Part shown: positions 1-26,416 of the stretch, piece by piece
Numbering within the stretch: position 1 is the stretch's first letter
Layout of the letters: every line of letters starts with the position of its first letter
Assembly (NCBI GenBank): GCA_047495785.1
Contig: JBLDXI010000018.1
Span: 1-64,000 of the forward strand
Direction of reading: 5' to 3'
DNA: 64,000 bases
Source: Lepidodermella squamata
Lineage: Eukaryota; Animalia; Gastrotricha
Translations under genes and position numbers: made by a program
Notes under the pieces: generated by a model
Database searches by the model: none
The model's input: the letters and a program-made list of their open reading frames with translations, nothing else
What the model was told of the DNA's origin: nothing

Positions 1-384
1 CATCTCGTGAGAGTGTCGCAAGAATTTACTATACAAACCGACTTTTTCTGTCGGTGATTGTGTTAGAATTAGTCGTGTAAAGGATTTATTTCACAAAGAA
101 GGAGATTTCATTTTTACTGAAGAATATTTTTTTATCGACCGCATAGATACTTGTACCATCCCCGACAAGTATTATCTCCGTGATACTCTGAATAAGCGTA
201 TTCAAGGTAGTTTTTACGATTGGCAGCTTCAGATAGCACATCGCAAGAAACATATTTAATAGAAAAAGTTCTGAAGCATCGCACTATAAATGGCAAGAAA
301 CAGGCTCTTGTGAAATGGCAAAACTGGCCGATTGAAGCCGCTAGTTGGATTGATGCAAACGAGATCAAAACCTTGGCCTCATGA
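1..384 (+). pseudogene. Maverick retroviral-like integrase, C-terminal region plus chromodomain (frameshifted; truncated by the window edge)
   Basis: Frame 2 from 35: KPTFSVGDCVRISRVKDLFHKEGDFIFTEEYF...YYLRDTLNKRIQGSFYDWQLQ, matching the Maverick integrase C-terminal FxVGDxVRIS...GxFY..LQ pattern. After a frameshift near 235-245, frame 1 gives ETYLIEKVLKHRTINGKKQALVKWQNWPIEAASWIDANEI (chromodomain), stop 382-384. Confidence 0.85.
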
Positions 385-578
385 ATAGAGTTCCTACGAC
401 TCCACTCTTAGCTTTCCTACAAAAGCCATCTGTGCGTGTAGGGGGCCTACATTTTTTTCCTTCTAATAACCGTTTGGCTTATAGAAATTTCAAACTATTT
501 ATTCAAAAACTAAGCTCCCCCCTTTTGGCAACAGCGCAATCCTTACTTTAGAAAAGATAGATAAGGATAACATAACAA

Positions 579-1798
579 ATGCTTAGCATCCAGGAGGACT
601 TCTTTATTTATTTACCCTCGAATGCCTCATATTCTCAACATCCGGCGAATACTCCGTCGGATTATCAAGTTGCTCTCCCTGTCCCAATTTGCGTACCCGA
701 TTGCCGTGCTTATGAAGTAGCCCTACTTTGAGGCTACAATTCCTGTTAGGTGGAGTAGCATTGATCGTCATACAGTCTATGTGCTTGATTGTAACTGGCT
801 GAAATCTTTTAAAAACGACATTATTGCTAATTATTTAACAAATCCTGGCTCTTTGCACATCGGATGAAAAGTTTCAACAATCCATGGGAAACTGCTTTAT
901 TAACAAAGTAAATTTCGGAGGTGAATATTTTGCGAATATAACCAAACTAATCGATCACTTAATGAAAAAATATCCATCTCAAGTAGTAATGGCTCTATTT
1001 TTGCTCATTATGATTCAGTCAACAAAAAAACTAAAATTACCTGTAAATGGCCATATTCTATGTTTATACCTTCAGATTCTGCTGGCCTCTTAGGTTTTGT
1101 GTCTCCAATAGAACAGAATACACCGTCTGGAGTTTTCATTTTTCCCAAGGCCCCAAAAAATGACGAGCCAGAATTTAATGAAGTTTCCACTTTTGATATA
1201 AAGTCAACGTATGCCTTGGCATATGCGTGGGAATATGAGCCACCAAATTCGTGAAAATCCACACATTTTATTCAACTCAGTTGGGATTGTTAGGCTTTCT
1301 AGCAGACCAAAACTTAAGGAGGATGCAAATAATGAGACAGCGGCGGTAGAAAATCAAGAAGGCGTAAATTCAGCACAGCACTTTGATTTTTCTGAGCAAA
1401 CAGTAATCACCAAAGATAATGATTTACCGCCTGCCTTTATTTATGCATGCTATGAAGAAAGTGCTACAGCTCAATACAACATTCAGTTGAATTATGGCAA
1501 TAACTCACTGTTCATTTACTGCTCAGTTGCAGCGGATGTTTTTGTTGGAGATTGCCAAGCTAGCCTCCTTCGAATGATAACCTATTCTACGATGGCTTCT
1601 GCTACGGCAAATTCAGACTTGTCATCACATTTTACAGTGATTTATAACTCGGGCCTATATTTACCTTTAAAAGCCAATTTTATAGATTCAATTCAAGTTC
1701 AAATCCGCCGCGATAACGGGGCATTGATCGATTTTGTGGATGGTAGCAAAGTTGTATTGCTACTTCATATTCGCCGAAAAACCGGAGCCTTATATTAA
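579..1798 (+). pseudogene. Maverick minor capsid (penton) protein, several frameshifts in this assembly
   Basis: ATG 579: MLSIQEDFFIYLPSNASYSQHPANTPSDYQVALPVPI...YEVAL (Polinton penton N-terminal motif). C-terminus LFIYCSVAADVFVGDCQASLLRMI...YLPLKANFIDSIQVQIRRDNGALIDFVDGSKVVLLLHIRRK. Frame breaks near 729, 865 and between about 1000 and 1260. Confidence 0.8.
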
Positions 1799-1836
1799 TA
1801 TAAGTGGCTGAGTTCTAATTATTAATATTACCGAAG

Positions 1837-2331
1837 ATGCCCCTAGCTTATTCTAACCAAAACGTTGACAAGTACCAGCAGTTTTTTCTCCGCCAACACT
1901 CCTCCCCGCTGATAGCAGGCTATGGAGCTGGAGCGGGTGCTAACCTGGACCATTTCCGTGGGGCAACAATTCAATTTCCATATCATTATAGGGGTCAGGG
2001 AATAGGAAATATATTAGGTGCCTTTTTCAGAAATTTCTTCCCAGTAATTGCTCCGTCTATTTTTCAACAAGCATTATCTACTGGCCAAAAAATATTAGGT
2101 GATATGCAACAACCTGAGGGCGCTAGACCTAGTTTTACCGAATCCCTTAAGCGTCATGGCACTTCAGGCGCCTTAAACATGGCTAAGGATATTGCTGAAA
2201 CGGCTTTGAAGCAACATCAAGGCGGTGGAGGTGGCCGTAAAAGGCGCCGTCGTCGTGGCCCTAGTAAAACTAGTAGTGTGACTGCAAAACGTAGGCGCCG
2301 TGCTTCTACTACAAAAAAGAAAGGCTTATAA
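1837..2331 (+). CDS. Maverick virion core-like protein with GxG putative adenain sites, amphipathic helix and Arg-rich tail
   Basis: 164-aa ORF between penton and MCP: AGYGAG, YRGQGIGNILGAFFRNFFPVI (amphipathic), QGGGGGRKRRRRR...KRRRR (basic). Confidence 0.8.
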   Translation: MPLAYSNQNVDKYQQFFLRQHSSPLIAGYGAGAGANLDHFRGATIQFPYHYRGQGIGNILGAFFRNFFPVIAPSIFQQALSTGQKILGDMQQPEGARPSFTESLKRHGTSGALNMAKDIAETALKQHQGGGGGRKRRRRRGPSKTSSVTAKRRRRASTTKKKGL

Positions 2332-2413
2332 AAGGAAAAGACGCGCAACAACTAAATCAGTGCTATTTGAAGCGTCTTGAGCCCATTGCTGCGTTTGATT
2401 CTTCAAATTTGTA

Positions 2414-3904
2414 ATGGAAGGCTTTGGAGATAATTTTGTTCACCCAGCCTCAGCCTCTTCAATAGTATTATCTTCAGATTTAGATTTATTTACTGTACCG
2501 CCTTCACAGCTTGCTGAAGAAAACCAAATAAGTATAGATGTTTACCCAATTGCCCCTCTTAATAGTTCACCGAACCTGATTGAGTTTCAAATCGGCCCGT
2601 ACAATGATTATTTGTGTCTGTCACGCATGCAACTGATGCTCAAGTGGAAAGTAGTTAGAACCCCTTCTGAAGCTCGGAAGAAAAATGCTGGCGAAGCTGA
2701 CGATGCATACAACGAGTATAAGGCTAGTCTTTCGGCTACAAATTTACAAAAAGCCCCGCTTTGTTTAGCCCACCACACAATGTTCAAAACATGCGAGATT
2801 TCACTAAATGGGCAACTTTTAAGTGAACAAAATTCATTATACGCTTATCGGGCCTATATTTCAACGCTTTTGTCTCATAATACTGATGCAAAAAACACGA
2901 TATTACAGACACAATTTTGGTATCCTGATACAGCTAAAAAACTGGATAATTTTGACAATTCAAACGAGGGATTTAAAAAACGGTTGGAAATTGTTCAGGG
3001 CGGGAAATCTGTGTGCACCCTGGGACGCCTGTTTGCAGATCCTATGCTGTGTAATAGGCTACTTCTACCTAATGTTGAAGTCCGCATCAAGCTCTATAGG
3101 GCATCTAACAATTTTGCTTTGGTTGGGCCGAGCACAGCTGATCCTCACTCAATCGTCATTGAATCTGCAAAAATTATTGCCCGGGCTGTTGTTGTGTCGC
3201 CGGACATAGTGATTGCTCATACGCGTGCGCTGGAAAAAACTAACGCCAAATATCCTATAATGAGAGTTCGAACAAGGCTTTTTCACATACCAAGTAGTGT
3301 TTTGAGTTACAGTGTAAGTTTGCTCATCGCGCGTTTCTAAGTCAATTTTTAAAACTCTAATGGTTTAACAGATACCACAATGTATTAATGGTAAGCTTCC
3401 AAGGCGTATGTTTTTCTGTTTTTTTGAAGATTCCGCCCTGAATGGAACGGCGGGTAAAAATCCATTGAATGCATTACACAGCCAGCTATCCCGAATATCG
3501 ATTTATTTGGGCAATGAACTACATCACTCAACAGCTCCCTTGGAAATGGATTTTGCAAATGGAGATGTCACCAGAGTCTATTTGGAGCTTCTCAATGCTA
3601 TCAACCCAGATAACCCTTTCAAGGCATCTACGTTAACTATGGATCAGTTTATTAATGGCTTCACAATTTTTGGTTTCGATTTATCGCGCAACTCCTCGTT
3701 GCAAAATTACTCAGTTATACGCACAGGTACCTGCAGAGTAGAGTTGAGTTTTGCTGTTCAAACAACAATTGTTACTCAGCTGTTAGTATTAACTGAAACT
3801 GATTCAGTTTTTGAGGTATCATCTTTTTTCATAAAATTAAAATTGCCTTAAAATTCAAATTTTTTAAGATCACACGAACGCGTGACGTAATTGTTGATTC
3901 TTAA
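2414..3904 (+). CDS. Maverick double jelly-roll major capsid protein, 3 exons (2414-3313, 3372-3815, 3869-3904), 459 aa
   Basis: SDLDLFTVPPSQ, IEFQI, FKTCEISLNG, YAYRAYI motifs. Removing intron 3314-3371 (GTAAGT..ACAG) gives SYS/IPQCINGKLPRRMFF...NGTAGKNP. Removing intron 3816-3868 (GTATCA..TAAG) gives the expected terminus SVFE/ITRTRDVIVDS*. Confidence 0.9.
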
Positions 3905-3914
3905 GCAGTTTTTC

Positions 3915-4478
3915 ATGTACAACAATGAATTGGAAGATTTCATCCGGATTGATCCAGTACTAAAAAAGTTTGACATTTTTGTTGTAGCCGCTGATCAGCT
4001 ACCACAGCAGCTTCCTATTGTGAAAAATAATCCACAATTGATTATCTGTAACACAGGAAATGTATACAATTCTACAGGAAAGCACTGGGTCACACTGTTT
4101 GTTCACAGCGCACAGCATCCTGATGAGCCCTGTGAGTTTTTCGATAGCCTTAACCTTTCCCCTTCCTATCATAACCTCTATATCGACAACTTTTTGAAAG
4201 CGAATAGCCAAACAGAAGTGCCGTACATTCATTGCAATAGGTCTTACCAGCATGTTTTTTCACAAATCTGCGGCTTATGGGCTCTATATTACAGCATGCT
4301 TCGAGCGCGAGGTAAAGACATGCACCAAATTTTGAGGCATTTTGATCAGCTTGGATCAAAGAACAATTTGCTTATAAAAGACTGTGTACTTTATCATAAA
4401 TTTAATACATTATATTCCCACTATGGTCTATCTATGAGACCACTTGAAAGAATAAAACCCTGTAACGTTAGATTATAA
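3915..4478 (+). CDS. Adenain-like cysteine maturation protease
   Basis: IICNT...GKHWVTLF...EFFDSL...YQHVFSQICGLWALYY supplies the His/Asp/Gln/Cys catalytic set; first ATG at 3915. Confidence 0.9.
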   Translation: MYNNELEDFIRIDPVLKKFDIFVVAADQLPQQLPIVKNNPQLIICNTGNVYNSTGKHWVTLFVHSAQHPDEPCEFFDSLNLSPSYHNLYIDNFLKANSQTEVPYIHCNRSYQHVFSQICGLWALYYSMLRARGKDMHQILRHFDQLGSKNNLLIKDCVLYHKFNTLYSHYGLSMRPLERIKPCNVRL

Positions 4479-4481
4479 AGG

Positions 4482-5325
4482 ATGAGTGATTTGCGCTGCT
4501 GCCCTGGCAACATAAATGAAGCTTTGCCTTTTGTTCACCCTAGCACAATTCTCATTGTTGGGCCGTAAGTGACGATGGAAATAAAAGTCAATATATTTTA
4601 GTGTAATTTACTCATCTTCAGGTCGGGGAGCGGTAAAACAAGTCTGGTGCTTCAAATCCTACAGGATGCATTCAGTTTTGAACTTCCTTTTGAGAGAATT
4701 GTCTATTTTTATTCTACTTTCCAACCCATTTACAATGACATAGCCGATGCTGCATTGCAAGTTCACAAAATTAAAGTTGAATTCGTAAATTTAGCAGACA
4801 CAAAAAACAGCAGTAGCGATAGCTTCAGCTTAAAAAATTATATCAACGACAATAACGAGACGCAGCCCCGCTGTTGCCTAGTATTTGATGACGTGTATCG
4901 CCTATTAACTGAAGACGAAACACTGGTACAGCTTTTTTTAGGAGGGCGGCACTTGAATACGACAACCATTCTCCTTCAACAAGTTTTGTTTACTCGAGCA
5001 AAAAATAGCAGGGAAATTCTGGTTTGCCTCAGAAAATTATTGTTTTTTCTTCTATGTATTTTCTATTCTATAGCAAAATGCAAACTATTTATTCTATTTT
5101 CGCTGCATTTCCGACTCTGCAAGCTTTAGATCATATGCACAACGGCGTTCCCCAATGGGCTGGCGAGGCCTTCTTGAAGCGTTGAACCAAGCAACTGCTG
5201 AATCATCTCACACGCCACTGCTACTGGATAATTGTGCAACTACTCCGGATAATCTCCGCATTCGTTCGAGCAATGGCTTCGGTAGTAAACCTGGTTACGC
5301 TTACATTTTAGTCTCAAAGAAATGA
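4482..5325 (+). CDS. Maverick A32/FtsK-like genome-packaging ATPase, 3 exons (4482-4564, 4622-5021, 5074-5325)
   Basis: Removing intron 4565-4621 rebuilds Walker A ILIVGP/SGSGKT; Walker B CLVFDD; GRHLN motif. Removing intron 5022-5073 gives SREIL/QNANYLFYF...LLLD...TPDNLRIRS. Confidence 0.9.
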
Positions 5326-5376
5326 TGATATGTACTATTATAAAAGGATTCATTGCCGCCCAATTTTCGTCGTTAA

Positions 5377-5790
5377 ATGAATAAAGTTATTACCTCAGCA
5401 ACGTCACCATCGTTCAGTCTTGATAAAAAACGGCGGCTTTTTCTTGCATTGAAATGGTTATTGCATGCTCACCCCGGTCAGCGTGCTGATATTTTAGCAA
5501 CTAGCTCTGTTAGCCTTATACGATTTCTTAGCCGTTGCGCCTTGTATTGGCTTCGCAGCACTAGTACTGTTCTGGCCCCTGATTTGGCTAAATTGAAACA
5601 AAAAGGTGTCAATTTGGTCGAGCACAACCGGCAAGTTTTTATTCGACACTGCCTTAATAGCAACAAGAACAATAGGCGAAATAAGGCTTCGAAAGCTTCC
5701 TTTTTTGCAGTTTTACCCACTGTATTGAAATCCTTTGCACCCAGGCTAAAGTTTGATTATTCAGAACTCAAGAGGCTTCTTCGAATCTAA
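5377..5790 (+). CDS. Small basic conserved-type Maverick protein of unknown function
   Basis: 137-aa ORF directly after the ATPase. LxxLxxxxxxQRxxILxxxxxxLIxxLxxC pattern resembles a small conserved Polinton protein. TATAAAAG lies just upstream. Confidence 0.6.
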   Translation: MNKVITSATSPSFSLDKKRRLFLALKWLLHAHPGQRADILATSSVSLIRFLSRCALYWLRSTSTVLAPDLAKLKQKGVNLVEHNRQVFIRHCLNSNKNNRRNKASKASFFAVLPTVLKSFAPRLKFDYSELKRLLRI

Positions 5791-5793
5791 ACT

Positions 5794-6945
5794 ATGCAGC
5801 GAAACTATGCACAGCGCATGACTATTGTTCCACTTGCGACACCTGGGCCAACTCCAGCACAACAACAACAACAACAACCAAACGCGAGCGACTTGATTGC
5901 TGCTAAAACATTGCTGAGCAATCCTCTGCTTTTCAAACTAGTGCAGCTATTACAGTCTTTAGACCGGGATGTGATAAACAACGCTAGTAGTAGTGATAAT
6001 TCAGCCGATTTAGTGCGAAAACGTAACGAACTCATGCATGAGATTATGAATTTGAAGAAGCTGGTAGTTTTACAAGGCAGTAGCCAGCCGCCAGCCGCTA
6101 TTCCAATGTCGCCTGCACCAGCAGATCGAGCAGAATCGAGGCCGCGCTCTCCTCCTCCTCCTCCTCCTCCTCCTCCTCCTCCTCCTCCGCTGCCGCCGCC
6201 GCCGCTTCCTTCTGCTTCTTCTCCTCCTCCTCCTCCTCCTCCAAAAAAACAGCAGCAACAACAACTTGCGCGCCAACAACCTACTAAATTAACATCTAGT
6301 AATTTTGGTCAAGCGGCCGGGCCTAGCTATAACAACTATAACAGAGATTCGGGTATTGGCGGCTTTCAGCAGCAGTTTTCACCTAATACAACGCCACGAC
6401 CTTCAACTGATAATAGCAGCAATTATGAATTTGATGATCTTCAAATGGATTTTCTATTCGCTGCCCCGCAAACATCATCGACTTCTAGCGCTGCAGCCAC
6501 GACCGTCCTCAGCCACGATGATGTTGTTGTTGATCGGCCTAATGATGAGCAGCTGCCTACGAGAGGAGGGACCCCCCGCGCGCGCACCCCCCAGGCCCCT
6601 CGAGACAGCAACACAACAGCAGGGTCGTCTTCGTTTAGCGGCGATGAGGACAGCAGCGGCAGCAATAGTGAAGAGCTGCAAGATGGTGCTGATAATGATG
6701 ATAATCAAGCAGAAAGGCAAGAAGAAGCCGCTGCCGCTGAACCGATGGAAATTGAGCTAGCTGGAGCAGCAACTGCAGCGGCAACGCCACGGAAGGGTCA
6801 AAAGCGCGGTAGAAAGCCACGTTCTATGACTGATCAAACACAAATATCACCACCTGGAAAACTTTTCCGAAGAACGTCACAGCGTAAGATAAATAAAATC
6901 AACAAGTTTCAAGCTGGCACAGGGTTTTGGAGTTTATTCATGTAA
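5794..6945 (+). CDS. Maverick low-complexity protein (helical N-terminus, poly-Pro, acidic tract, KRGRKPR, C-terminal QAGTGFW)
   Basis: 383-aa ORF packed 3 bp after the previous gene and ending 7 bp from the PolB stop. Confidence 0.7.
   Translation: MQRNYAQRMTIVPLATPGPTPAQQQQQQPNASDLIAAKTLLSNPLLFKLVQLLQSLDRDVINNASSSDNSADLVRKRNELMHEIMNLKKLVVLQGSSQPPAAIPMSPAPADRAESRPRSPPPPPPPPPPPPPLPPPPLPSASSPPPPPPPKKQQQQQLARQQPTKLTSSNFGQAAGPSYNNYNRDSGIGGFQQQFSPNTTPRPSTDNSSNYEFDDLQMDFLFAAPQTSSTSSAAATTVLSHDDVVVDRPNDEQLPTRGGTPRARTPQAPRDSNTTAGSSSFSGDEDSSGSNSEELQDGADNDDNQAERQEEAAAAEPMEIELAGAATAAATPRKGQKRGRKPRSMTDQTQISPPGKLFRRTSQRKINKINKFQAGTGFWSLFM
6148..6243 (+). repeat. (CCT)n/(CCG)n microsatellite encoding polyproline
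   Basis: Direct inspection of the tandem CCT runs. Confidence 0.9.
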
Positions 6946-6952
6946 TAATCGA

Positions 6953-9900
6953 TCATTGATCAGCGCTATATCCATGTGGATAAGTTAGAAAGGAAGCATC
7001 GCCGGGGCGTAGCCAACGTTTATCATAGGTTAAACGAATCTTTTTTGTTATATGAACACAATGAATTTCCGATAACGGAGTATGCACTTTTTTAAACTGA
7101 GTCTGATCCAATTCAGCGATGACGCTGTTTTTGTTGTTATCACCCCGGCCCCCGCTTCCGCTGGTTTCGTTATCGTGGAGACTTTGTATTACATGCTTGA
7201 TGAACAAGAAAAAATCGAGAAGACTGCGTGAATGAAAACTTTGACGTATTCCCTGCGCGTGACGTAAATAATAAAAAACAGAGGGCGTAACAACAAGTAG
7301 CAATTACCTTTAACATTAGCTTGGCTTTGCCGTCAGCAAAAAGTAGGGCATATGCCTTACAGCCCAGTACAACCATTGCAATGATGCGTTGCCCTGTATC
7401 AAGCTGATCCGCCAAGCCGCCAAGAACGGGTGTGAACTCAATTTTAGTAATTCCAGGCCCTTGAAGGCAAAAAATTGAATCCGTGTCTAAAACAAAAGAC
7501 AAAAAACGTAGAGATGTTGGTAGCATAAGCGGCGCTATTCTCTAACCGCTGTAGATAGCACTTTTTGGGCCGACTCGGTACAGCTCACGAGCCAGTTTCA
7601 CACGAGCATTAGCTGTTACGAAGGCCGCTGTTATAACTGAGGTGGATCCATTTGGAACGTCGGCATCTTTGGTTGGCCGTGTTACAATTCGCAAGCGAGA
7701 GACATCATCAGAGTTGATGAGTAAGCCTAGTGGTTGAATATCCACAATTTCCAAAGCTGGATTATTTAGCATTTGCTGAAGCAGAAACGGGGATTTGATA
7801 TAATCTGTTCTCTCTAGATTAGAATTCATAGCAAATCGACCAAAAAAGCTGTTCAAAACTAATTTGGCGATCGCGCGTAACCCAGGGTTCTTTTTATCCA
7901 ACTTGGTGCTATCAATCGTTATACCAATGCGTTCCCATTGCTCCAAATACTGTGCTTTTTGTTCACTAGTAGCACAGTTTGGCGGCCAGCCGGAGGATTC
8001 GGCCTTCAAAATGGTGAATCTTTTAATGAAATCTCTGAAAATTGTATTGCTCTTCTTGAACTCCCATATCTAAAAAAAATAACTTGATAGAAGCCATGCA
8101 TGAGTTGGCTAAACAAAATTATTAACCTCGTAGACTTCCAGCAATCTGTAGCCATGAACATCTGTAGCGTACTTCAGTTCCACAGAGCAATACGAACCAA
8201 TCCAGGACCTTTCATAATCAGAATGGGTGCATTCACGGCTTGAAACGCACAAGTTTGGATTTGCAGTCGACGAACAAGCATAGCAACATGAGAACACGAG
8301 CTTGTTTTGTTTACTACGAAAGCAGAGTACAGGTAGCCAGATGTTTTTCGGCGCTAATACCTAGCAAAATAATGTGGTGATGATGAAAGCAGGGAGACGA
8401 TATGTAGATGCGAAGAGCTTACGCGTGCTTGTACGACACCAAAAAAAGATTCCTTTGAATAAATCTCCTGCAGTTTCTCGTTGTTTAATCTGAGATCCAA
8501 GGTGGATACTTTAGGTGGTCCTATTGCATAGTAGCCATCCATCATACAGCTTGGATATAACGAGTTGAAGTCGGCGGAAATTATAGAATAATCGGGCGAT
8601 GGAAATAAGAAGTCCTTGGTTTGCATCCCGCTTTCCTTACAAATTTGAGCAATCTTTTCCAAATTTTGGTCGCCTGAAGTTGAGTGTGATTCGGCAATCA
8701 TAGCCATTAAACGAAAAGCTTCGACCCGCCCTAAAAAGTAGGCATGATGTTTTAATCCCGCGAAGATTAAATAGGGAAAACCTCCAGTTACCTCCAAAGA
8801 AAAACGAACGGCTCTCCATTACATTAGCTATTGTGAGATTATCATAAATCTCCTGTGCTCTCGGGTGTTGTTTGAAACTAGCTCTAATTTCATGCTCCCA
8901 AAAGCTTTGAAGAATGTAACCATTCGAGCGAAACAACTCTTCACGTTCCAAGGTTTGCTTGTAAACTACGCCGTTTGGTTGTCCAGATAGAAAATTTAGT
9001 TGTGAGGCCTCAAAGCATTGCAAGCAGCCATGGACAGCACAACCATGAACCTCGACAATCAGATCGGGTTCACTCGGAATTTTATCACGACGTGCAACAA
9101 AACCGTCGACGCGATAAGGATAACGGTGGCCAGGTATAGATATTCGAACTTCTTGACGTGAGTTCTGAGCGTGTTTCATTGAACCATAAGTTTCAGGGTC
9201 AGACTCCATCAGAAATTGAAGAAAAGCTATCGAGAGCCTGCTGTGTGAATCCTTGCCACAGTAGCCAGCGGTCGGGATGACAGGTAATGTATCCTTCGTA
9301 AGAAACAGCTTGCGGAAGCATGTGCTTGTGAGAGAAGCTAGTGTGATGCATTCTTTAAAGGCATCAGTAGAACACAACTCCAGCATTAGCGCCCGAAATT
9401 TGATTGACGCCTTTTCCAAAACTAGACAATCCTGTATGCAGTATTGCAGTAACGTGTGGCGAACACTGAACCGTTTCAGTTTGTTTTCGTTGTAGAAAGT
9501 TAGAAATTCTGCTCTTTCAGAAGGAGACATTTTGTCAGGCTCATAGTAGATCATATTAGGCAGCTGTGGGAATTCGAGATTGAAACTCGAAGGATTACAG
9601 CGAATTCAATCACAATAGCTCAAGAAGTTGATGATGTACTTACTTTTCTTTAGTGCATAAGACGTAAGGAAAGAAGGTTTTCTTGTCTGGGATTCCCATT
9701 GTTGCTGGTAAATCCCTGTTGTTGAACAAATACCTGTAAGCAATGTAGTTTCTTAGTGTTTCTTAGGTAACCTACCTTAATCTGCATTGAAAAAAGAGAT
9801 ATGAATCCAAAAATCTGATTTTTTGTTGTTTGAAATCAATGCATAGTAGAGATCCCTGCCTTTGAAGAATCTTCACTTTAGAACATCGTGTTTGAATTTC

Positions 9901-11808
9901 TTTCAGTAATAATAAGGAATCGAAATTGGCTGAGTTGTGAGCCAAATAAATCGACTGGTAATTCATAGGTAGAAGCACCCAGTTTACGAAATCCTCCAGA
10001 GGACGACTTCCATAAAAAATATGAAGTCCACAACTAGAATGGCATCGCTGAATCCTCGCTTCGATGCAGTGAGGTATGCATACGACCTTTGCAACGATAA
10101 GGCATACTTGGAACTCATTGTTGTTATCAGCAAGTGATGGCGAAAATGTCTCAGTGTCCCAAAAAACTAGGTTACGATAACGTTCCAGTTTATTCGCCGG
10201 TTTCAAGGGCTAAAAATACACCAACCACAGTATTTTGAAAAAAGCTGGACTGAAAAAAATGAGTATACCAAGGGAGTCATGAAGCAGAAGTGTGTGCCAT
10301 TTTCTTCGTCGCTGGCTTTCAAAGGCTCCTGACAAATGTGACAGCGCCGCCCGGGACACATAGCCTCATGCTTGAGAAAATGTACAAATTTCCTCCCGCA
10401 TTTAAAGCATGGATTCTTTTTAGCACATTTGTGGTTTTGCTTACAACGTTCGCTATACAAAACTAAAAACATAAAAAGAGCTGAATAATAATGAAAAGGT
10501 TAAAAACATCAGACCTGCACGACATTGCGGACACCGCGTGTAGTTTTGTTGGTCTGTGTTGGAAATCACACGGCAAATGCTCCCTGATACACCTAAAATA
10601 ATATTAATGATAAAAGAAGTGAAATTCAGGTTTTTCATGTAAAAATTACGGCAGGAAGAGCATGCCAACTTGCATCTGTGCACAGCCGTACTCGTTTTCG
10701 TCTGAAAGCAAGTGGGGCATATTCGTTGTGCATTGCTAAGAGTGGCCTTCATAAAGTTGAGATTCGCAATGACATGAAAATGATGACTGTTGGGCTGAGA
10801 GACGTCGTTGCGATAAACCAGTAGAACAACAGGAAGCAACCCAAGGCTTACGCGATGATCAAATTCTGGGATTTCCCTAATAACATCCTGTGATTCGTAC
10901 GAGTATACTACGAATCTGTAAGTATTATGTTCAGGATCGATAGCCGAACACAGGGCTGAGTAATGATCATCTAGATTGTAGGCTGGAAGGTTGAGAGGTA
11001 AGCCCGCTTTCTGATATAGCGCCGTGGCTTCGCGAAATTGACGATTGGTTCGCGTACTACGTATCGATTTGAAGGTTGCTTGAAGAGATGGATCCGTAGG
11101 ATTCGCCTTCATGTGAGCCAAAGCCACTCCAGTGATGAGAGCTCTGCCCATGCAAAGATTGTTCGTTTCATTCTTGCGCGCTCCGATTCTAACGATCGAT
11201 TTGGAGCGAAGAAAAAATTTGTCCAAAGTTTCGTTTATAGCCCGCTCTGCCCGAGAACCACCAACAATTTGACCTAGATCTGCATTGGGGTTATCAATGA
11301 CACAGAGACGAATTGTCCACCGACCAGCAAATGAGAGTTCTTCATTACTCTGTAATATTTTTCTCAGTTGATCAAAAATTGAAATTTCCAGCAACCGATC
11401 GCGTTTCATGAAGGGTAGGCTAAGAGGCATCTTCAAGTCGGGGTGGTACAGTGTTAGCCGGCAGAAGGAATTCACAGGTAAATCACGATGGATATTTACA
11501 ACAATATCGAACAGGAAGTTGGCCAGAATATTGAAGCGGGTCTCCAAATCAATATTAGCCACCTGGTCGGCTGGTACGTTCTGCACAAATGATCGAATAT
11601 TATCCAGTCGAGGTTCATCAGCGCCACCAGACAATTGAATCATCGGCCCAAGCGAACTAGAAGATTGGCCATATCTGTTGATGTAGGTTGAGGCAAAGTC
11701 GGATGTTACGGGCTGAATGAAGTACTCCACAGAAAACATTTTGAATTTTGTAGAATGAATCAGGCGATTACTTCGAATAAATGAGTATTGTAAACTATAG
11801 TTATCCAT
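6953..11808 (-). CDS. Protein-primed family B DNA polymerase (pPolB) with N-terminal terminal-protein/vOTU-like region, Cys-rich Zn fingers and an inserted Vsr-like nuclease; 11 exons, 1424 aa
   Basis: Introns (plus coordinates): 10593-10649, 10463-10514, 10210-10268, 9716-9775, 9586-9643, 8731-8791, 8361-8422, 8070-8126, 7487-7546, 7253-7307 (581 nt total; 4856-581=4275 nt=1425 codons). Spliced product has ExoI VFWDTET, ExoII AHNSANFD, ExoIII YCIQD, FFGG/RV, motif A DFNSLYPS, motif B KLVLNSFFGRF, motif C YS/DTDS, KAY, K/GI and YDKR. Confidence 0.93.
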
Positions 11809-11925
11809 AACAATCTAAGATTAAAAATTTAAAATTGATCGAATTTGGGAAGAGGTAAAACTTTATTACAAGGATAGATTGAAATAAATATTCAGTAAGT
11901 CATTTTAGTCAAGTTTTGTGTTAGC

Positions 11926-12447
11926 TTATTCATTGGCTGTTTCAATCATCGCTGCAACAGTTAACACCCCAGTTGCAAGGTCTTGAAACTGAGCTGCATC
12001 AAGAGAGACTCCTTGTCTTGAGGGTTGTTTATTTCCTAAAAAGTTAAATCATAAAAAGATTGCTATTACTGTAAATTTGAAGTAAATACCTTTAGCATCC
12101 AGATAAAACCTGCGTATATCTATAAGAATCGGTGAAAATGATGGCACAAAGACACAGACTTCAATTTTGCATTCATGCATCGAAAATTTAAAGCCTGTGT
12201 TGTGAGATAGCAGGGCAAGTTGAGCCTGAGCAACCCAAGCATCATTCGGCGGTCGAAAATAAGGAACGAACTGGCTAAGAAATTCGTCTTGTCTAAAGGC
12301 GAGTTTTTTAGGCTTATCGTTCTTATCTTTGCGATCAGTCATTATGTAGATGAGATTAGAATCCTGAGGATGCTGTTGAATGACCAAGTTACTAGACATG
12401 TGATGATTGACTGTCTGGTTAGCAGATTCTACTATCGCCTCAGCCAT
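11926..12447 (-). CDS. PC4/Sub1-like ssDNA-binding protein, 2 exons (intron 12036-12089)
   Basis: Spliced C-terminus IDIRRFYLDAK/GNKQPSRQGVSLDAAQFQDL matches the PC4 core IDIR.F....G...P...G.SL...Q...L. Confidence 0.8.
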
Positions 12448-12489
12448 GATTATTGAAAATTAAATCTAATGAAATAAGAATGTAAAACT

Positions 12490-12852
12490 TTAAGGGATGG
12501 GTTCTTTATATTGGCATAACTTTTCATGCCCAAAAATGAGGTCATAAGTTAGAGTAATGGGACAGCCTTTATCAGAATATTGGCATTTGTAAATCAAATT
12601 CGAGATAATGTTCGATAAAATTACAGGGGGTTTAACGAAATCTTTCCCTGTTAATGATTCGCGGCAAAGTGGACAGCAACATACTGTTCGAGCTGAATTT
12701 TGAAAAATAGCGAGAACACATTTAGTACAAAATAAATGGCCACAGGGGCGCGTTTGAATAGGATTAAGTAGGATAGATAAACAAATTGGACATTGCAAAG
12801 ATTCAGCGTCTAAAATCTGGCTGTTCGAGAGCACAAGTCTTGTTGGATCCAT
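12490..12852 (-). CDS. C3HC4 RING finger plus TRAF/SINA-type zinc finger protein (putative E3 ligase)
   Basis: CPICLSILLNPIQTRPCGHLFCTKC...CPLCR followed by CQYSDKGC...HEKLCQY. Confidence 0.85.
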   Translation of the reverse strand: MDPTRLVLSNSQILDAESLQCPICLSILLNPIQTRPCGHLFCTKCVLAIFQNSARTVCCCPLCRESLTGKDFVKPPVILSNIISNLIYKCQYSDKGCPITLTYDLIFGHEKLCQYKEPIP

Positions 12853-12862
12853 CAATGAGGAT

Positions 12863-13627
12863 TCAAGTCTGAGAGATTACAGGCGTGATAAGAGAGGCAA
12901 CATACTGAGAAGCTTGCTTTAGAACCTCAGAGGCATTCAAATTATCAGTGTCGATAACAAGCACGGGACATGGTAGGGATTTGTTTGTAGTCTCAACAGT
13001 ACACATTTTTTCATGAAACTCATGTACGAGGCGTAAATAATCCAGTGATAATAGCATTTCAGAACCCCGAGCTCTAGCTACGGCTCTTTGACAAGCTATT
13101 TGGGGAGAGGAGCGCAAGTAAATAATAGCTTCAGTTTTTACAAAATTCGGCTCGAAATTATCATACAAATTCATGAGAGCGTGATATTCGATAGAATTTA
13201 TGCGCTTGGATGCATACGCACATGGGATAAAGACGTTTTTAGAACAGAAGGGCGTTCGATCATGCAGAACGATAGTATGCGCCCCGTAGATTTCAGGTTT
13301 GTGGTTAGGGGCTGAATAAAGGCCGCACATATCACTCGTGGCTACAATTTGAAAGTTGAACGCATTTTTCATCTGATAGTAATCTTTCAAAATGTTAGTT
13401 TTATCGTCATCAGTAAAGGACTCCCAACGATGAACAGGCTCGCAAATTGGCCACGCGGTATATCCCTGAAGTTTACGGTTGAGTGAAGGTAGATTAGTGA
13501 GACCCTCGATTAAGGTTGATTTCCCGCTAAAACAAGAGACTTTAAATAGAATTCTATTCGGTGGAGTATATGAGACTTACGCCCCAATGTTGCCGACTAT
13601 GCCGAAATGGTAGACTTTAGGATGCAT
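12863..13627 (-). CDS. Deoxynucleoside kinase (dCK/dGK/TK2 family), 2 exons (intron 13527-13580)
   Basis: Spliced P-loop IVGNIGA/GKST; EPVHRW; FNFQ; DRT motif; IIYLRSSPQIACQRAVARARGSE; YLRLVHEFHE. Confidence 0.9.
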
Positions 13628-13813
13628 CCAGCTTGCTTCAAGAAATATGCTAAGTGTATTCTTGAAGCATCTCTCTTAAATAGTCTGAGTGATATTTCCA
13701 TAAAAGGAAAAAACAGGGAGATGTTTTGTTTGAATTGTTTAAGGTAATTACACCGTAAAGGGTAAAAAATCCTAATTGCTTTTTATTTTGATAAGTAAAA
13801 AATCGCATTGTTT

Positions 13814-13891
13814 AATTAGGGAGGATGTATAAGATTTATTGACATGATGTTTTCTTATTGAATTACCGACAGCAATTAAGGAGGATGTATA
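13814..13891. promoter_or_regulatory. Duplicated AATTARGGAGGATGTATA motif in the divergent dNK/dUTPase intergenic region
   Basis: aattagggaggatgtata at 13814 and aattaaggaggatgtata at 13874, in the longest intergenic gap of the element, between divergent genes. Function is inferred. Confidence 0.4.
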
Positions 13892-14061
13892 CAATACCAA
13901 GAATCTTTGATGAAAAGCATTAAAGCCAGCACTGAGGGGTCAACAGAGCTAAAGGCCCTAATGCATTTTTAAGGAAGATTGAATTACAAAAACAATATGC
14001 CTGAAAGGAGGTAGCCGCTCACATAAAAATCGAACCTCAGTAACAATATAAATTATAAAAT

Positions 14062-14565
14062 ATGAAGCTGAAGGTAGAGCTAACAAGTAACAAAGCTAAA
14101 GAACCGACAAAGCATACTAAAGGCTCTGTGGGTTGGGACATCTATTCAGCAGAAGAGACGACACTGCAACCTGGAACCAGGGGACTGATTCAAACTGATA
14201 TTAAAATCTGTTTACCACGAGGATATTATGGACAACTATTCAGTCGATCAGGAATGAGCATCAACCATGGAATCGATACGGTCGCTGGAGTAATAGGTAA
14301 GAAGCAAATAATAATGAAAATTACTAATGAATATCTGTATTTTTCATGAATTAAAGACGCCGACTACACCGGAAAAATCGTAGTCTGCCTTGCAAACAAC
14401 AGCAAAACACCTTACAAGATTAAAATAGGCGACCGTATTACCCAGTTGGTGTGTTTAAAATATGGTCGCTTAGAATCTGCAGTAACGGTAACGGGGCCAT
14501 TGAAAAACGCTCTAGCAGCAAATTCGACCCGTGGCGATAACGGATTCGGTTCATCTGGACGTTAA
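14062..14565 (+). CDS. dut: Trimeric dUTPase, 2 exons (intron 14297-14356)
   Basis: Motifs GWDIYS, SRSG, AGVI/DADYTG (Asp codon split by the intron), GDRITQL, RGDNGFGSSG; AATAAA at 14664. Confidence 0.92.
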
Positions 14566-14831
14566 CCCCTCCAATCAAGCCGCTACAAATCTCTGAACAA
14601 ATGAATAGAAAAACTGATAAGACTTATCCCAGCTATAAATTCATTGCTTGAAACGTTAAGACTAATAAAAAGTGTTTGTGTGAATGAAAAAGGGCTCTAT
14701 TGCAGCTGCACTAAAGAAGCAGTGTAAAAATGATTAGTTTAGCTCATAACAGGTGAAAAAACGAAGATTTGTTTATTTTAGTTAGGTGAAATCATAGCAG
14801 TGGGTTAAAACGAAGGTATATTGACAAGAAG

Positions 14832-15018
14832 CGGCTATAGTACAAATCGCCGTACTGCTATTACTCATCCCCAAATTGCGTATATTTATACCAAACGGGT
14901 ATAGTAAAAATCGCCGTACTGCCATTACTGATCGCAAATTGCGTATATTTATACCAAACGGCTATAGTAAAAATCGCCGTACTGCTATTACTGATCCAAA
15001 GTTCCCATCCTTACTACT
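14832..15018. repeat. Maverick right terminal region: about 2.6 tandem copies of a 63-64 bp unit followed by the ...TTACTACT terminus
   Basis: Units start at 14832, 14896 and 14959 (cggctatagta.aaatcgccgtactgc.attact...). Putative 6-bp target-site duplication TTCGTA at 15019-15024; its partner would be outside the window. Confidence 0.8.
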
Positions 15019-18000
15019 TTCGTATTTATTCTTTTGCTCAGAGAGGAGGCTGTGGGTCAGGCTCTAAACTGCCCCGCAGCGGTAGCTCAGCCTCAATATA
15101 CACTTATCGATGAGGCTTCTCGCGACACTAATTTCAACTTTTATCGCTCGGAAACGGTTGCAACAAATAGTAGCCTCACTCGACTTGCTTCTGATATTGC
15201 TGGAAATGCGATTTGGGCCAAAGCGGTTCGTTCATCAAATAATGAGATTCAAAGTTCGAAAATGACTTTTTCCTATTCAGCCTTTCTCATTAGATGATTT
15301 CTACGTCGAGGCTTCGGTCAAAGTGCAACCATCAAAAGAAAACATGACTTCCATCAGGGGTTTCACTTTAGCTCTGGCGAATGAGGCAGCAATAAAACGC
15401 AAGGCACCATATTATAGCATGTTCCCATCGATAATCACAATGCAGCATGTCGGTAAATTTAGCAAAAATACCAATACTTTGTTTGTTTCTTGAAGTTTGA
15501 AATATATGTTAAGGACTTGCAATTGTAATGTCTCCAATGGGCAATGGCGTAGGTGGCAGCTGGTTCCCGTCTGAAGCATACAGTAGCAAGTGGACATACT
15601 ACTGCCCATCGCACGATTCGTACTTTGGAAACCAAACATCGATATGGAAATTTAGACTTCAGACCAAAGCGCTAACTGTGGAGGTGTGTTCTAGCATCAA
15701 CTGCACGCGACTTTTCAATAACGTCAGCATACCCAAGTCCTTTCAATCAACATTCGGAAGCCTGCGATCCTACATTGGCATGTCAGGGAGTGCTTTAATT
15801 TCAGACGCTTTGATCGAGTTGGCATCATTCAAAGTCTGGGATTGTGCAATCTCGCCCCCGACCCTGGCACCAAATGTAGGTTTCCAGTTAATAAAGCTGT
15901 AGATACCTCATGTTTTCGTTCGCAGCTCATTTCTCGAAATCTGATGTGCCCGGGAGGAGCGTTTCAACCCCAGCTATCCTATCGATGTCAGATTTTAGCA
16001 GCAATTGGAATCTCTATCACTTATTACCATCGAGTGGGAGTGCCCCGCAGCAACAGCCAAACGCTGTGAAACTTCACTCAGTCGGGGTGTTATCTGGGTC
16101 TATGTGGAGCAAAAATGTAAGTAGGTGATTATTTTGAAAAGTCTTAGCCCACTTCGAACCCTATTTTAGCGCATCACGTCAAATGATTTCTACATTGAAT
16201 ACGTTGTTGACATTAGCAACGCAGAGTATTATCATGGCTTGCTCTTCTTAATAACTAATAACGCTTCTATCACTCGCGAAAATGGTTCGGTCAACTCAGC
16301 TTTTACTTACGGCGTCAAAGAATCGCTCCATACGGGTAAGTTATTCCAGAAACGAATTCGAGGAATTTTCATTGTTTAATTTCTCGAATAGGCCTATCGT
16401 TCTTACTACCGTCAACGCCATATATATTCTACCAGCTGAATTTAAACCTGTTGAGGAATGCCGGATCCCCTAAGTGGTGGGATTACTCTGTCTCGGATTT
16501 CACCAAAGCCTGCACGATAGTGTTCAGTGATTCCTACATCAACACGCGTTCATTGTGGCAAATTCGCTACCAAAACCGAATGATAACCATCGACGTTTGC
16601 CGATTGTGCTCGAGCTACTGCACCCGTGTTTTCAACACGTCGACTTTCGCTTCGTCCTTCAATTTCAGCAGTGGGGACATGCGGATCGGGATAGCTTCGA
16701 ATACTGACGATGATACATTTTCGCCTGGTATATCACAGTTTCATCCATAGCAGTTTGGGATTGCTCTGTTTCGAACTCAACAGTAGCTGAGTACTATTAT
16801 GAGCCAACGTGTTTGAACGATCCAACGACAACAACAACAACAACTACTACTACTACTACACCTACTACTACAACGACTAGAACAACAACGACAACTATTG
16901 TGCCCTCAATTGCAAGCTCAATTCAGACAGCCCTAACCCTAACTACAACCAGCCGAGCGACTACAAATCTAACATCAAGCAATGGCGTGACATCATTAAC
17001 AACCCAAAGCATTGTAACTAGCTCTCAAAGCCCATCTTCAAGCTACGAGACCACTCAAGCTTCGAGGTCCGAAAGTACTGCAACAAGCCCTAACGCCCAA
17101 ATATCAACCACTGGGATGGTTCAAAGCACGTCGACAACATCTCAAATTCAAGATTCCACTTTAACTTCATCTACAGCGGCGAAGACAACAAAAACGATAG
17201 ATGCTACCACTTTCAAGGGCACGAATGCTATTATCAGCCTGGCTTCGGCAAAGGCCGCAGATTTAACGGAGGGCGATGGATATCTCGCCAAATGGCTACC
17301 ACCAACATCAGGCTTATCCGCCAATATATGGTCAGCCTGCTCTACAAATTGCAGCATCGGAGTCCAATGGCGACTTACTTCGAATGGCTCGAAAGAATAT
17401 CAACAATGCAGTTCAACCACTCGGTGCGCAACTACGGCAGATGAAGCAACTCGGGGCGTCGATCTGCTTTACAAGCCTATGCCAACAGAGGCTACTTCAA
17501 AATCAGAGGCTCAATCAAAACCAAAGTTGCGACAAAACTGAACCCATTCTGCAGATCAAACTATGCGAAATGCTGCCCTGGTTATACGAACAACAAAACC
17601 CCGACTTCGAACTACGTCGAGGCTGATGAGCTGATCGATTCAAACTATGCGAACACGTCGAAGAAAGCAGATGGTTGTTGCTTCAGAATCACTTATGTCC
17701 TCAGCAAGACTTCGACTACCAAATTTTGCGAATCCTTTGGAGTGCTGAAGATTGCTGGCAATCCGGCTACAATTAGCCAGGCAGATTTCACAAAAGTGCT
17801 GGAAGAAAGCGAGCTGGATTTGAAGAGACTCATGTTGGCTGAGTTCGGCTTTACCGGAGTTTTCGACACCTGCCTGCCCACTGACAATCCATGTGTTAAC
17901 GAAGATGCCATAGCTGTTGGCGGAACGACTCTCAAGTCGAATTCTACCAGCACAGCAGCAACACCGGGTGGAAGCACTGGGATCATTGTTGGTTCAGTCA

Positions 18001-18110
18001 TCGCTGTAGTAGTTAGCCTCCTTTTAATCGGAATAATTGTCTATTGCTATTGCTGGGATTCAAAGCGCAATCGAAGAACCAGAATCGTTAAGTATAGCAT
18101 AGCAGTATAA
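15019..18110 (+). pseudogene. Host type I membrane receptor-like gene (two beta-rich lectin-like repeats, Thr-rich stalk, TSP1-like, SEA-like, TM); 5' end cut by the Maverick and at least 3 frameshifts
   Basis: Exon-by-exon paralog of 26644-30307 with shared intron positions (K(A)/PFSLDDFY, /GLAI). Introns 15226-15280, 15453-15513, 15876-15925 and others. Frameshifts near 15982, 16740 and 17488. WSACSTNCSIGVQWR; TM IIVGSVIAVVVSLLLIGIIVYCYC. Confidence 0.75.
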
Positions 18111-18182: not shown

Positions 18183-19037
18183 CTAATTTTTATTTAACTT
18201 TAATTTCCCAGCATTGGTAGAGTAACAATGATTGTACACAGCTTCGCGGCATTCCTTGGCCGATGCTGCTTGATGAGCTTCGGTCGGCAGTACGTTCCAC
18301 CAGTCCGGCCCGCGATAGCTCAAGCTTAGCGTACCGCGTTCCTTTTTGAAAGTTGGTTTGAACATTGGTTCAGAGCGGCGAACATCGTAGGTACTGATTT
18401 CGTTTAGCCGGAACAATGTTTGCATCGCTACTGGTGCTTGATGGTGTAAGCAGCTCCAAATCAAAGTTGCAAGGTGAATAGCGTGTTTTTGATTGACGTC
18501 GACCCAACCAAGACGGCGTCTCAACGGTTCAGGGTCGGCCAAGGGATGTGCCCCGCAAATGGCACGCACGGCTCGGTCTTGTGTTGACTGACGTTTAGCT
18601 AGATTTGTCGGTGCTGCTTGGCCTAATGTGATGTCGCCGTAGTTCAAATGGCTGAATACCAATCCATTCGCCATCATTATTGCCGTTCTGCGATCCACAA
18701 ACTTCGTGGCTAATTTCAAAGCCTAGAGACCCCTCCTCGCCTTGCTTTTGATGTTTTTTATTTGCTTTTTGAATGTCAGTTTGTCATCGATTATAAATCC
18801 AAGGGTGACCATTTCACTTGAAGCTTTCACAACAGTATCTCCGATAGCGATAGCAAAGTTTGGTGTTGAAGGAATCGCGCATTTCATTATCAAAAACTGA
18901 GATTTCTTCCCGTTTACCATTAACGAGTTGTTTGCTAGCCAAGAACAGACACGATTCATTTCCTGTTGTAATACTGAGCGCAACTCATTGACGTTCTTGC
19001 TTGCAAAAAAGGTACTGAATGAAACGACTTGTGCCAT
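18183..19037 (-). mobile_element. 5'-truncated non-LTR retrotransposon (CR1/L2-group-like) RT C-terminal fragment, disrupted near 18720
   Basis: WLANNSLMVNGKKSQF, LGFIIDDKLTFKKQI, SHLNYG, QDRAVRAI, LGW, SLSYRGPDWWNVLP. Confidence 0.8.
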
Positions 19038-20415
19038 ACCTATTACTCACGAGAAATCATTGATGCTTTGTTGTTTTATGCCCTTTGTTTGAGAAATTTG
19101 TAATAAGTTACGTTCATATTATGGCCGAACCCTCGCCAATCACACGATCATCAACCGATTTACCGTTAGATTTATAAAATACCGCGTGCATAATATTCAG
19201 TCCGTCGTCCCCTGCTCGACCCCCATTTGTTGCATACAACATTGATCATGTGATCTGTAAAACTTTAATGGGTTTAGTTTAATGAAGTGTGTTCTCGTAG
19301 TGAAAAGATGGATATATGGATACATTCAACTGATCAATCAACCTGAAATCTCAAAATAGGTGTTTTCGTTGCGCAATACTATATGATGCAGGTTTCCCTC
19401 TACACCTTTGGGTGTAGTACATTGGGAGAAGTTCTGTTGAAAACATCGCCTTGAAAATATTATTGACAAATAAAGCGAAGTGCTGTAGGAAATCGTAGAG
19501 TACGAGTATTAAAATATGAGCAATGGAAGGGATGAAATGCGTGGCTCATTTCAGGTAGAAAAAGTAGGACTTGTCCGTGAACACTTGCCCGATTTATGAA
19601 GAAAAAAGCTGCTTTGAATTATTTTCCAATTGTTTGAAAGCAAGAAAAATCTGAGCAGTAGGTACTAATTGGCATAATTCAGATTTTGGCTTGAAAAATA
19701 TTGGTTGCGCGTCAGAAGTTCCAACGGTATCCAAATTGTTTGATTAAGTTATTCACTCACCTCTTCGCCAATTTGATGAATCCTTTATGGCGGCTACATC
19801 AGCGCCATCTTGAACATGAACATACTCAGATGAGAAAACAGATTTCGTGATTGCTGTTCTCCTTGTGTTCGTACGCTTGAGCCGAAGATCGACAGCAGTG
19901 TTTGATGAGTGTGATTGCAGGCTCGTAGCAACCTGGTCAATCAGAGCGCGGCTTGGAAAATTAAGTTTTAGGCTCTCGTCATCCAGGCTGCGATATTATA
20001 GCCTACTTCATTCGGTTTCAAAACTGGAGCAACATAGGCGAATCTGCCGCGAGCTTCTGCGCAATAGGCTTGTCGCGACTTGGCGACCTCATAATATGTA
20101 TACAGCTGGTAAACGTTTGCTATACAACTGATGAAATGCCAATCTTTCCGTAGATTCGTCAGAACTTTCGTTGATGATCATTTCAGCTGCTAATGCATCT
20201 GGCATTATCTGCAGCACACGCTGAATATCACTGTATATTCACCACTTATCAAATTATACAAAAATCTGAGAGCCTGAACTCAAACAAAAAATGATCAAAA
20301 CAGCAGCTGAATCGAAAACCGGTGCAAAATTCGACAACACAGAGGGAAGAAATGGCCCTCTTCTCAGGGGAACATCTACACCCCTCTCGCAATCCACTCT
20401 CACTATACCACATCA

Positions 20416-26036: not shown

Positions 26037-26276
26037 TATGAGTTTCAAGACAATCGACAATCCATTATTATTATTATATAAAACAAGGATTGAGGTATTT
26101 GGATGGGATGGGTAAATTTGGATGGGAGTTAAAATTTAAGAATTCATTAAACTGGAATGATCGTTTGATGCCTTTTCACTTGTTCAAGTAATTTTGATCG
26201 ATTGGATTTGTTTTCCCAGCCTTTATTTCAATGCTAGTTGTTAGTCTTTCGAAATTCGAAAATTCAGCGAGCGTGA

Positions 26277-26416
26277 CAGTGCGCGAAGTAGGATCCCCGA
26301 ACTAGGGGGTATTTTCGGGCCCAAATTTCATGACCCCTGCGGTTTTTTTTATTTTTCCCTTTTGCCTTGCGAGCTGCAGGTAAGATACCATCCGTACTTC
26401 GCTACTTTGCGCACTG
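26277..26416. mobile_element. hAT-type MITE, 140 bp
   Basis: TIRs CAGTGCGCGAAGTAG / CTACTTTGCGCACTG; perfect 8-bp TSD GAGCGTGA (26269-26276 and 26417-26424). Confidence 0.85.

Follow-up and report, generated by a model that had tools for sequence, protein, structure and literature searches.

The first 15 kb of the DNA analysed here (64,000 nucleotides (nt) of the gastrotrich Lepidodermella squamata, contig JBLDXI010000018.1 of assembly GCA_047495785.1, positions 1 to 64,000 of the forward strand; this whole stretch is called the window) belong to an integrated animal Maverick/Polinton that carries 17 GT-AG introns in six genes and probably represents a young, recently copied family needing the host spliceosome. 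The element does not follow the canonical architecture of single intronless core open reading frames (ORFs): its genes for the major capsid protein (MCP), the packaging ATPase and the protein-primed DNA polymerase B (pPolB) contain 14 introns, 11 of which were seen spliced. An initial annotation, made from the letters of the window alone, had proposed 17 GT...AG segments of 52-62 nt, and all of them lie exactly where it had placed them, distributed as it had counted (MCP and the ATPase have two each, pPolB has ten, and the genes for a PC4-like protein, a deoxynucleoside kinase (dNK) and dUTPase have one each). It had also described the spliced pPolB and MCP as free of stops, in agreement with the lengths obtained (4275 nt, or 1424 amino acids (aa) plus stop, and 1380 nt, or 459 aa plus stop); the spliced ATPase (735 nt, 244 aa plus stop) has no internal stops.

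The introns fit the U2-type spliceosomal class in their sequence features, which include GT...AG ends in all 17, a GTAAGT-like donor (A at +3 in 13 introns, G at +5 in 10) and a T-rich 3' end (T at -6 and -5 in 13 of the 17). They are richer in AT than the exons (70% vs 57.5%), their phases are divided 7/6/4, and retention would break the frame or add a stop for all except one. Each visible kb of the element holds about 1.1 introns on average; relative to the six coding sequences alone, the density is 2.1 per kb. Ab initio GT-AG scoring yields many false candidates and was excluded as evidence.

Splicing was assessed in four public runs, whose contigs were aligned to positions 1-16500 of the window (assembled contigs throughout). 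Run X1 is DNA-like, run X2 was marked 'RNA?' as a guess, and run X3, which is unlabelled, comes from another study than X2. The contig joints comprise 15 listed and 17 further unlisted ones, and intron skips were counted among the joints listed. Across the 17 junctions, at least 14 introns are exactly skipped in X2; X3 shares five of these skips, and no intron is skipped in X1. An X2 contig over 6398-11709 measures 4731 nt, equal to 5312 minus the 581 nt of all ten pPolB introns. At least these 14 introns are thus removed from the transcript. Loose ends of X2 contigs consist of poly-A at 5737 and 14830, and another is presumably a cDNA adaptor. A joint between 11721 and 11812 on opposite strands was taken as a library chimera, and depths of RNA contigs were left out of any gene ranking. 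At position 6717, one substitution is common to X2 and X3 relative to the window and X1, and the organism label of X2 differs from that of X1 and X3, a pattern that could reflect a label difference, a close relative or transfer. Further well-scoring GT-AG segments of 55-58 nt lie outside the frames (11815-11869 and 12466-12520 on the minus strand, 13762-13819 and 14724-14781 on the plus strand). These are possible introns of untranslated regions, and the intron total may exceed 17; segment 12466-12520 is retained unspliced in one X2 contig.

Alignment of the spliced proteins to homologues gave the same exon boundaries. The spliced pPolB, written with an X at each junction, was compared with a profile built from 58 homologues, each 1000 aa or longer, out of 120 fetched; the match (E 2e-232) covers columns 50-1254 of 1256, with adjacent columns on either side of each of the ten junctions. 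Profiles of MCP (five homologues; E 3e-78) and ATPase (11 homologues) from Polinton loci place all four junctions on contiguous columns, so that profile columns continue across MCP intron 1 and both ATPase introns. In a second, independent ATPase profile (31 of 46 matches), exon 1 occupies columns 7-22, exon 2 ends at column 141 after starting at 24, and exon 3 covers 144-208 (E 4e-11). The window pPolB has 25-30% identity to its nearest homologues and a long branch (0.9-1.8 changes per column), and a 42-row tree places it in no well-supported group.

The gene content is that of a Maverick/Polinton (Table 1). Sequence matches indicate a protein-primed DNA polymerase B, an A32/FtsK-like packaging ATPase and an adenain-like cysteine protease, the last matching protease-position ORFs beside MCP in Polinton loci L042 (E 7e-11) and L004 (E 2e-10). 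The MCP is a double jelly-roll capsid protein by profile, cluster and fold comparison: Atlas assigns it to DJR-like clusters (0.96-0.97), and a model of exon 1 from a 7-row alignment (pLDDT 60) matches capsid proteins of PBCV-1, iridovirus, Sputnik and PRD1, with PBCV-1 as the top Foldseek match (E 2.6e-5); a single-sequence fold of the same exon (pLDDT 32) was not usable. Pfam returned nothing for the MCP exons, the ORFs at 5377 and 5794 or the N-terminal exon of pPolB. On the plus strand the order is integrase end, likely minor capsid gene, basic ORF, MCP, protease, ATPase and two ORFs without assigned function; dNK, RING, PC4-like and pPolB genes occupy the minus strand, followed by dUTPase on the plus strand and the element end. 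The first five plus-strand genes have the same order in Polinton locus L038. Both integrase pieces match an ORF upstream of the capsid module in L004, L038 and L048 (E 1e-5 to 2e-6), and the minor capsid pieces match the ORF between integrase and MCP in L004 and L038 (E 1e-7 to 2e-3), with the Sputnik minor capsid V18/19 as the nearest named Atlas cluster (score 0.94, low recognition). A Colicin_Pyocin match on the PC4-like exon (E 0.03) was judged to be chance.

Table 1. Features of the element, with window coordinates.
Feature	Position	Strand	Remarks
Integrase C-terminal end and chromodomain	1..384	+	Truncated by window start; frameshifted in window copy; Pfam Chromo E 2.7e-8
Likely minor capsid (penton) gene	576..1798	+	Several frames in window copy
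Arg/Gly-rich basic ORF, possible core protein (inferred)	1837..2331	+	Weak match to same-place ORF in L038, E 0.002
MCP, 459 aa, 3 exons	2414..3904	+	Profile match, Atlas, Foldseek
MCP intron 1	3314..3371	+	58 nt, phase 0; homology only
MCP intron 2	3816..3868	+	53 nt, phase 0; skipped in X2
Adenain-type maturation protease	3915..4478	+	No intron found; Pfam Peptidase_C48 weak, E 0.034
Packaging ATPase, 244 aa, 3 exons	4482..5325	+	Pfam Pox_A32 E 1.3e-6, above cut-off; profile E 7e-57
ATPase intron 1	4565..4621	+	57 nt, phase 2; interrupts Walker A motif; sequence and homology only
ATPase intron 2	5022..5073	+	52 nt, phase 0; homology only
Basic ORF, 137 aa, no function assigned	5377..5790	+	No Pfam match
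Pro/Gln/Ser-rich ORF, 383 aa, no function assigned	5794..6945	+	No Pfam match
pPolB, 1424 aa, 11 exons	6953..11808	-	Pfam DNA_pol_B_2 (PF03175) in 3 exons
pPolB intron 10	7253..7307	-	55 nt; skipped in X2, X3
pPolB intron 9	7487..7546	-	60 nt; skipped in X2, X3
pPolB intron 8	8070..8126	-	57 nt; skipped in X2, X3
pPolB intron 7	8361..8422	-	62 nt; skipped in X2
pPolB intron 6	8731..8791	-	61 nt; skipped in X2
pPolB intron 5	9586..9643	-	58 nt; skipped in X2
pPolB intron 4	9716..9775	-	60 nt; skipped in X2
pPolB intron 3	10210..10268	-	59 nt; skipped in X2
pPolB intron 2	10463..10514	-	52 nt; skipped in X2
pPolB intron 1	10593..10649	-	57 nt; sole in-frame stop-free intron; skipped in X2
PC4-like ssDNA-binding protein (weak assignment), 2 exons	11926..12447	-	Exon 2 Pfam PC4 E 0.33, profile 33-49
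PC4-like intron	12036..12089	-	54 nt; skipped in X2, X3
RING-finger protein	12490..12852	-	No intron found; Pfam zf-C3HC4 E 4e-7
dNK, 2 exons	12863..13627	-	Pfam dNK E 1e-21
dNK intron	13527..13580	-	54 nt; interrupts P-loop; skipped in X2, X3
dUTPase, 2 exons	14062..14565	+	Pfam dUTPase: exon 1 profile 2-68, exon 2 profile 69-129
dUTPase intron	14297..14356	+	60 nt; skipped in X2; between Pfam profile positions 68 and 69
Right element end: subterminal tandem repeats (~60 nt, 14829-14990) and terminal (ACT)2; likely terminal inverted repeat	14829..15018		Sequence

Introns were also found in other Polinton polymerases. A metagenome scan matched at least 509 stretches, of which 445 were confirmed and the best 80 kept as loci; this ranking favours intronless genes, in-frame stop-free introns would escape, and the loci carry no RNA check. 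The pPolB matches ran in a single frame in 35 of the 80 loci and were broken in 45, and the 14 loci whose break had an excess of 40-200 nt were tested for introns. Five of the 80 (L009, L016, L066, L069 and L073) together yielded ten clean GT-AG introns that are AT-rich and 56-132 nt long; at L010, L021, L028, L044, L048, L050, L054, L071 and L077 the excess held no convincing intron, and these loci were not counted. None of the introns in the five loci occupies any of the window's ten pPolB positions, one position is common to L066 and L069, and the intron in L016 is missing from its close sister L055. The 42 rows of the tree were picked from 129 after a first tree, with the intron-bearing group fixed beforehand by the intron test; on it, the six intron-bearing polymerases need six changes, and a single clade is rejected (p-AU 2e-54). 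Introns were therefore likely gained repeatedly on separate pPolB branches, as judged from sequence comparison. Each of the window's ten pPolB intron positions lies in one open frame in 46/51 to 66/67 (90-99%) of the metagenome loci covering it, so these introns were gained in the window lineage and are not ancestral. The initial annotation had seen here a lineage with host-like gene architecture: contigs, homology and the fold model bear out the spliced genes, whereas the idea of a single peculiar lineage gives way to separate gains elsewhere. Five introns (L016:3551, L066:1525, L069:1407, L073:525 and L009:2898) cluster in a stretch of ~13 codons around the polymerase 'LNS' motif and occupy four different positions; this cluster is possibly a hotspot of gain, or a result of sliding.

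The origin and role of the introns can be explained in several ways. It is very unlikely that they are insertions of introner transposons, as in the dinoflagellate eupolintoviruses described in the available text of PMC12166617. Besides that precedent, the narrow range of intron sizes would fit such an origin, as would one 14-nt AT-rich match among the 136 intron pairs compared, a match reached in 5 of 200 shuffles; however, the other pairs have no similarity, the introns lack terminal inverted repeats, boundary repeats span 0-3 nt only, and no copies of the 17 introns exist elsewhere in the window. Within the window they thus appear to be neither a repeated family nor bounded by terminal inverted repeats and target-site duplications, although they might be very old, decayed introners. 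Their sizes match those of short host introns, as far as these are predicted from paralogous channel genes (11 introns, ten of 45-72 nt and one of 161 nt), and the introns of dNK, dUTPase and the PC4-like gene could have arrived with captured host genes. The least credible proposal is that X2 and X3 represent DNA containing an intronless (processed) sister copy and that the window copy has decayed through insertions; neither run is on record as RNA, but the poly-A ends, the uncovered host flank, the placement of the skips (precisely at GT-AG in coding-strand orientation, for plus- and minus-strand genes alike) and the lack of any joined form in X1 all oppose it. An adaptive role is more plausible than these, although still unlikely. 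By analogy, viral mRNA resembling host mRNA might evade silencing of intronless transcripts, or introns might gate latent versus productive expression; transcription in two studies and the precedent of punuivirus (10.64898/2026.10.09.758095, available text) would agree with this. On the other hand, introns are spread over replication, capsid and accessory genes alike, RNA contigs extend over the protease and RING genes, where no intron was found, and no alternative splice form occurs among the 15 joints listed.

Evidence for recent copying comes from the right end and from contig depth. Terminal inverted repeats of Mavericks/Polintons are expected to end in (AGT)2//(ACT)2 or (AG)3//(CT)3. The right terminus here is (ACT)2 at 15013-15018, the commonest end motif of vertebrate Mavericks according to the available text of PMC8097293. 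Depth in X1 is 1533-3108 over 1-15400, falling to 174 and then 77 in the two final bins, which lie in the flank, and X1 element contigs of 1.1-1.5 kb (depth 1533-2186) read through the introns with 0 other letters. The flank accounts for 39 of the 40 variant rows listed and the element for one. The element is about tenfold deeper than the flank, with nearly no variants among copies; X1 contig depth is not copy number, so a young multicopy family is what we infer from it. Contigs matching the right end continue into other sequence at 14879-14986, beyond which depth falls, and such ends suggest that the terminal stretch occurs a second time. Another X1 contig matches the flank from its first base, 15019, and has other sequence ahead of it; it is likely an empty-site allele, and this insertion could be polymorphic or heterozygous. 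The introns are present in the amplified form and so are likely older than the last round of copying. The same depth could reflect free replicating viral DNA (episomes or virions) alongside one or a few integrated copies rather than many young insertions, an explanation that accepts the introns as real and that we regard as unlikely. The tenfold excess with almost no variants is compatible with it, as is the complete, transcribed and spliced morphogenesis module, yet right-end contigs in both X1 and X2 pass into non-window sequence, suggesting further insertion sites (with the caveat that contigs are unable to show free ends), and its expression in two other studies is what an inherited family would show. 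Much less probable is a single old provirus, domesticated or stranded, that became immobile and later gained introns like a host gene cluster. The long polymerase branch and mutually unrelated introns do imply long residence, and the left part of the window copy is frameshifted; nevertheless, the terminal motif is intact, an empty allele is likely, depth is in excess among near-identical copies, and the full viral gene set is retained in viral order.

Several points weigh against a spliced, recently copied Maverick/Polinton family. The depth excess could also arise from free viral DNA or amplification bias. The RNA evidence consists of assembled contigs only, from a run with a guessed label (X2) and one with no label (X3), and junctions 3314-3371, 4565-4621 and 5022-5073 are absent among the joints listed. 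From 1 to 2330, across the integrase end, the minor capsid gene and the basic ORF, frameshifts appear to disrupt the window copy, which may therefore be defective; the majority form in X1 differs from the window by nine single-base indels in this region, with none listed in 2414-14565, and the frameshifts are private damage or an assembly error. X1 also diverges from the window before position 17. Only the right-hand 15 kb of the element is visible, so that of the integrase just the C-terminal end lies within the window, and the left end, the expected 6-bp target-site duplication and the catalytic integrase core lie beyond it. No close relative was found in viral_contigs, or in metagenome_contigs searched with the window's own exon, and the order and age of the intron gains are therefore not datable. 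Host introns and those of the five metagenome loci are predicted by homology only, and the evidence as a whole comprises DNA, RNA-like contigs, homology and a fold model.

A mechanism consistent with a mobile, spliced Maverick/Polinton can nonetheless be outlined. Host Pol II would transcribe the provirus and the U2 spliceosome would take out the introns, after which protein-primed DNA synthesis by the spliced pPolB would replicate the element, with the integrase placing the resulting copies at new sites. Mavericks copy DNA to DNA by protein priming; with no reverse-transcription step in the cycle, introns are copied with the genome and seldom purged. They could accumulate singly during long residence in one host lineage as a largely neutral ratchet, and the same ratchet likely ran separately in several other Polinton branches. 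To our knowledge, Mavericks encode no RNA polymerase and therefore already use nuclear Pol II. The initial annotation's view that the introns tie the element to both Pol II and the spliceosome is thus correct for the spliceosome, a dependence that the introns add; Pol II is used without introns as well and is not an effect of them. We tentatively suggest, as slightly less probable than its opposite, that active polintoviruses dependent on the spliceosome have evolved repeatedly in invertebrates and form a hidden class there, of which the window element would be a live, transposing and perhaps particle-forming example tied to hosts that splice 52-62-nt introns, and which ORF censuses score as fossils. 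If so, splicing would have to occur ten times for its polymerase and twice each for its capsid and ATPase. Intron-bearing polymerases make up five of the best 80 metagenome loci even under a ranking that favours intronless genes; for the window element there is, in addition, support at the transcript level in two studies and some indication of recent movement. Where a viral genome is compact and has homologous intronless relatives that are dated, it offers a clean system for studying intron birth without introners, as well as for asking whether introns limit horizontal transfer or alter silencing.

The host flank contains Cys-loop channel and sushi-domain genes, with weak to moderate E-values, which mark the host as an animal. 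About nine divergent genes for Cys-loop-type ligand-gated channels, some of them broken, stand in tandem at 38700-63800 and may represent an expanded family of chemoreceptor-like type. At 25300-37600 lie four paralogous genes, each a single exon, that encode secreted Cys-rich proteins of ~220 aa (one was checked, with no Pfam match), and mucin-like membrane proteins are encoded at 15000-18100 and 26600-29900. Reverse-transcriptase relics of non-LTR retrotransposons are located at 18183-19046, 41872-43269 and 50207-50743, and MITE-like short elements with 25-41-nt bounding inverted repeats at 43474-43997, 45565-45803 and 51244-51813.

Published descriptions, as far as the available text of the papers cited here and below extends, agree with the initial annotation that Mavericks are normally intronless: core genes are without introns in PMC8097293, 10.1101/2022.07.12.499685, PMC10120064 and PMC8547959, and PMC12220804 reports group I introns only. 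Its expectation that ORF-based surveys would miss or miscall such elements fits the methods of two of these studies. In PMC8097293, intact elements are defined by intronless ORFs and Genewise 'introns' are handled as insertions, and in PMC10120064 a prokaryotic gene caller is used since such viruses 'do not contain introns'. Because surveys define intact Mavericks in this way, spliced ones drop out or are counted as decayed. No publication on spliceosomal introns through animal Maverick core genes was found in a search outside supplements, Repbase and most subscription journals, where individual cases are possible.

Other nuclear DNA elements, such as adenoviruses and cut-and-paste DNA transposons, also use host splicing. 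Adenovirus splicing mainly joins leaders and alternative ends, and transposase genes hold few introns; neither group is known to have ten constitutive mini-introns through a pPolB. With the Mavericks/Polintons of animals (PMC8097293; 10.1101/2022.07.12.499685; PMC10748475; adintoviruses, PMC8502044) the window element shares pPolB, a double jelly-roll MCP, a likely minor capsid protein, a protease, an A32-like ATPase, an (ACT)2 terminus at its right end, two oppositely oriented gene modules and, as far as its C-terminal end indicates, an integrase with chromodomain, but it differs in its 14 core-gene introns, divergent pPolB and dNK, dUTPase, RING and PC4-like accessories. The introner-invaded eupolintoviruses of dinoflagellates are likewise Polinton-type elements with intron-forming sequence; theirs, however, consists of young repeated transposon families in a protist host, mostly inserted after integration and ~25% coding (PMC12166617), whereas the introns of the window element are unique, old-looking, within coding frames, spliced and common to the amplified copies. 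Intron-rich mirusviruses (PMC12768974), for which a ratchet-like gain of introns has been proposed, and punuivirus (10.64898/2026.10.09.758095) are functional dsDNA viruses that also carry GT-AG introns and rely on the host spliceosome. They belong to other viral groups with giant genomes and protist or algal hosts, in contrast to the window element, which is roughly 15-20 kb long, has an animal host and contains no intron-encoded endonucleases. Dinoflagellate introners and intron-rich mirusviruses are the nearest precedents, and an intron-rich Maverick, although surprising against the literature, is not unique in nature.

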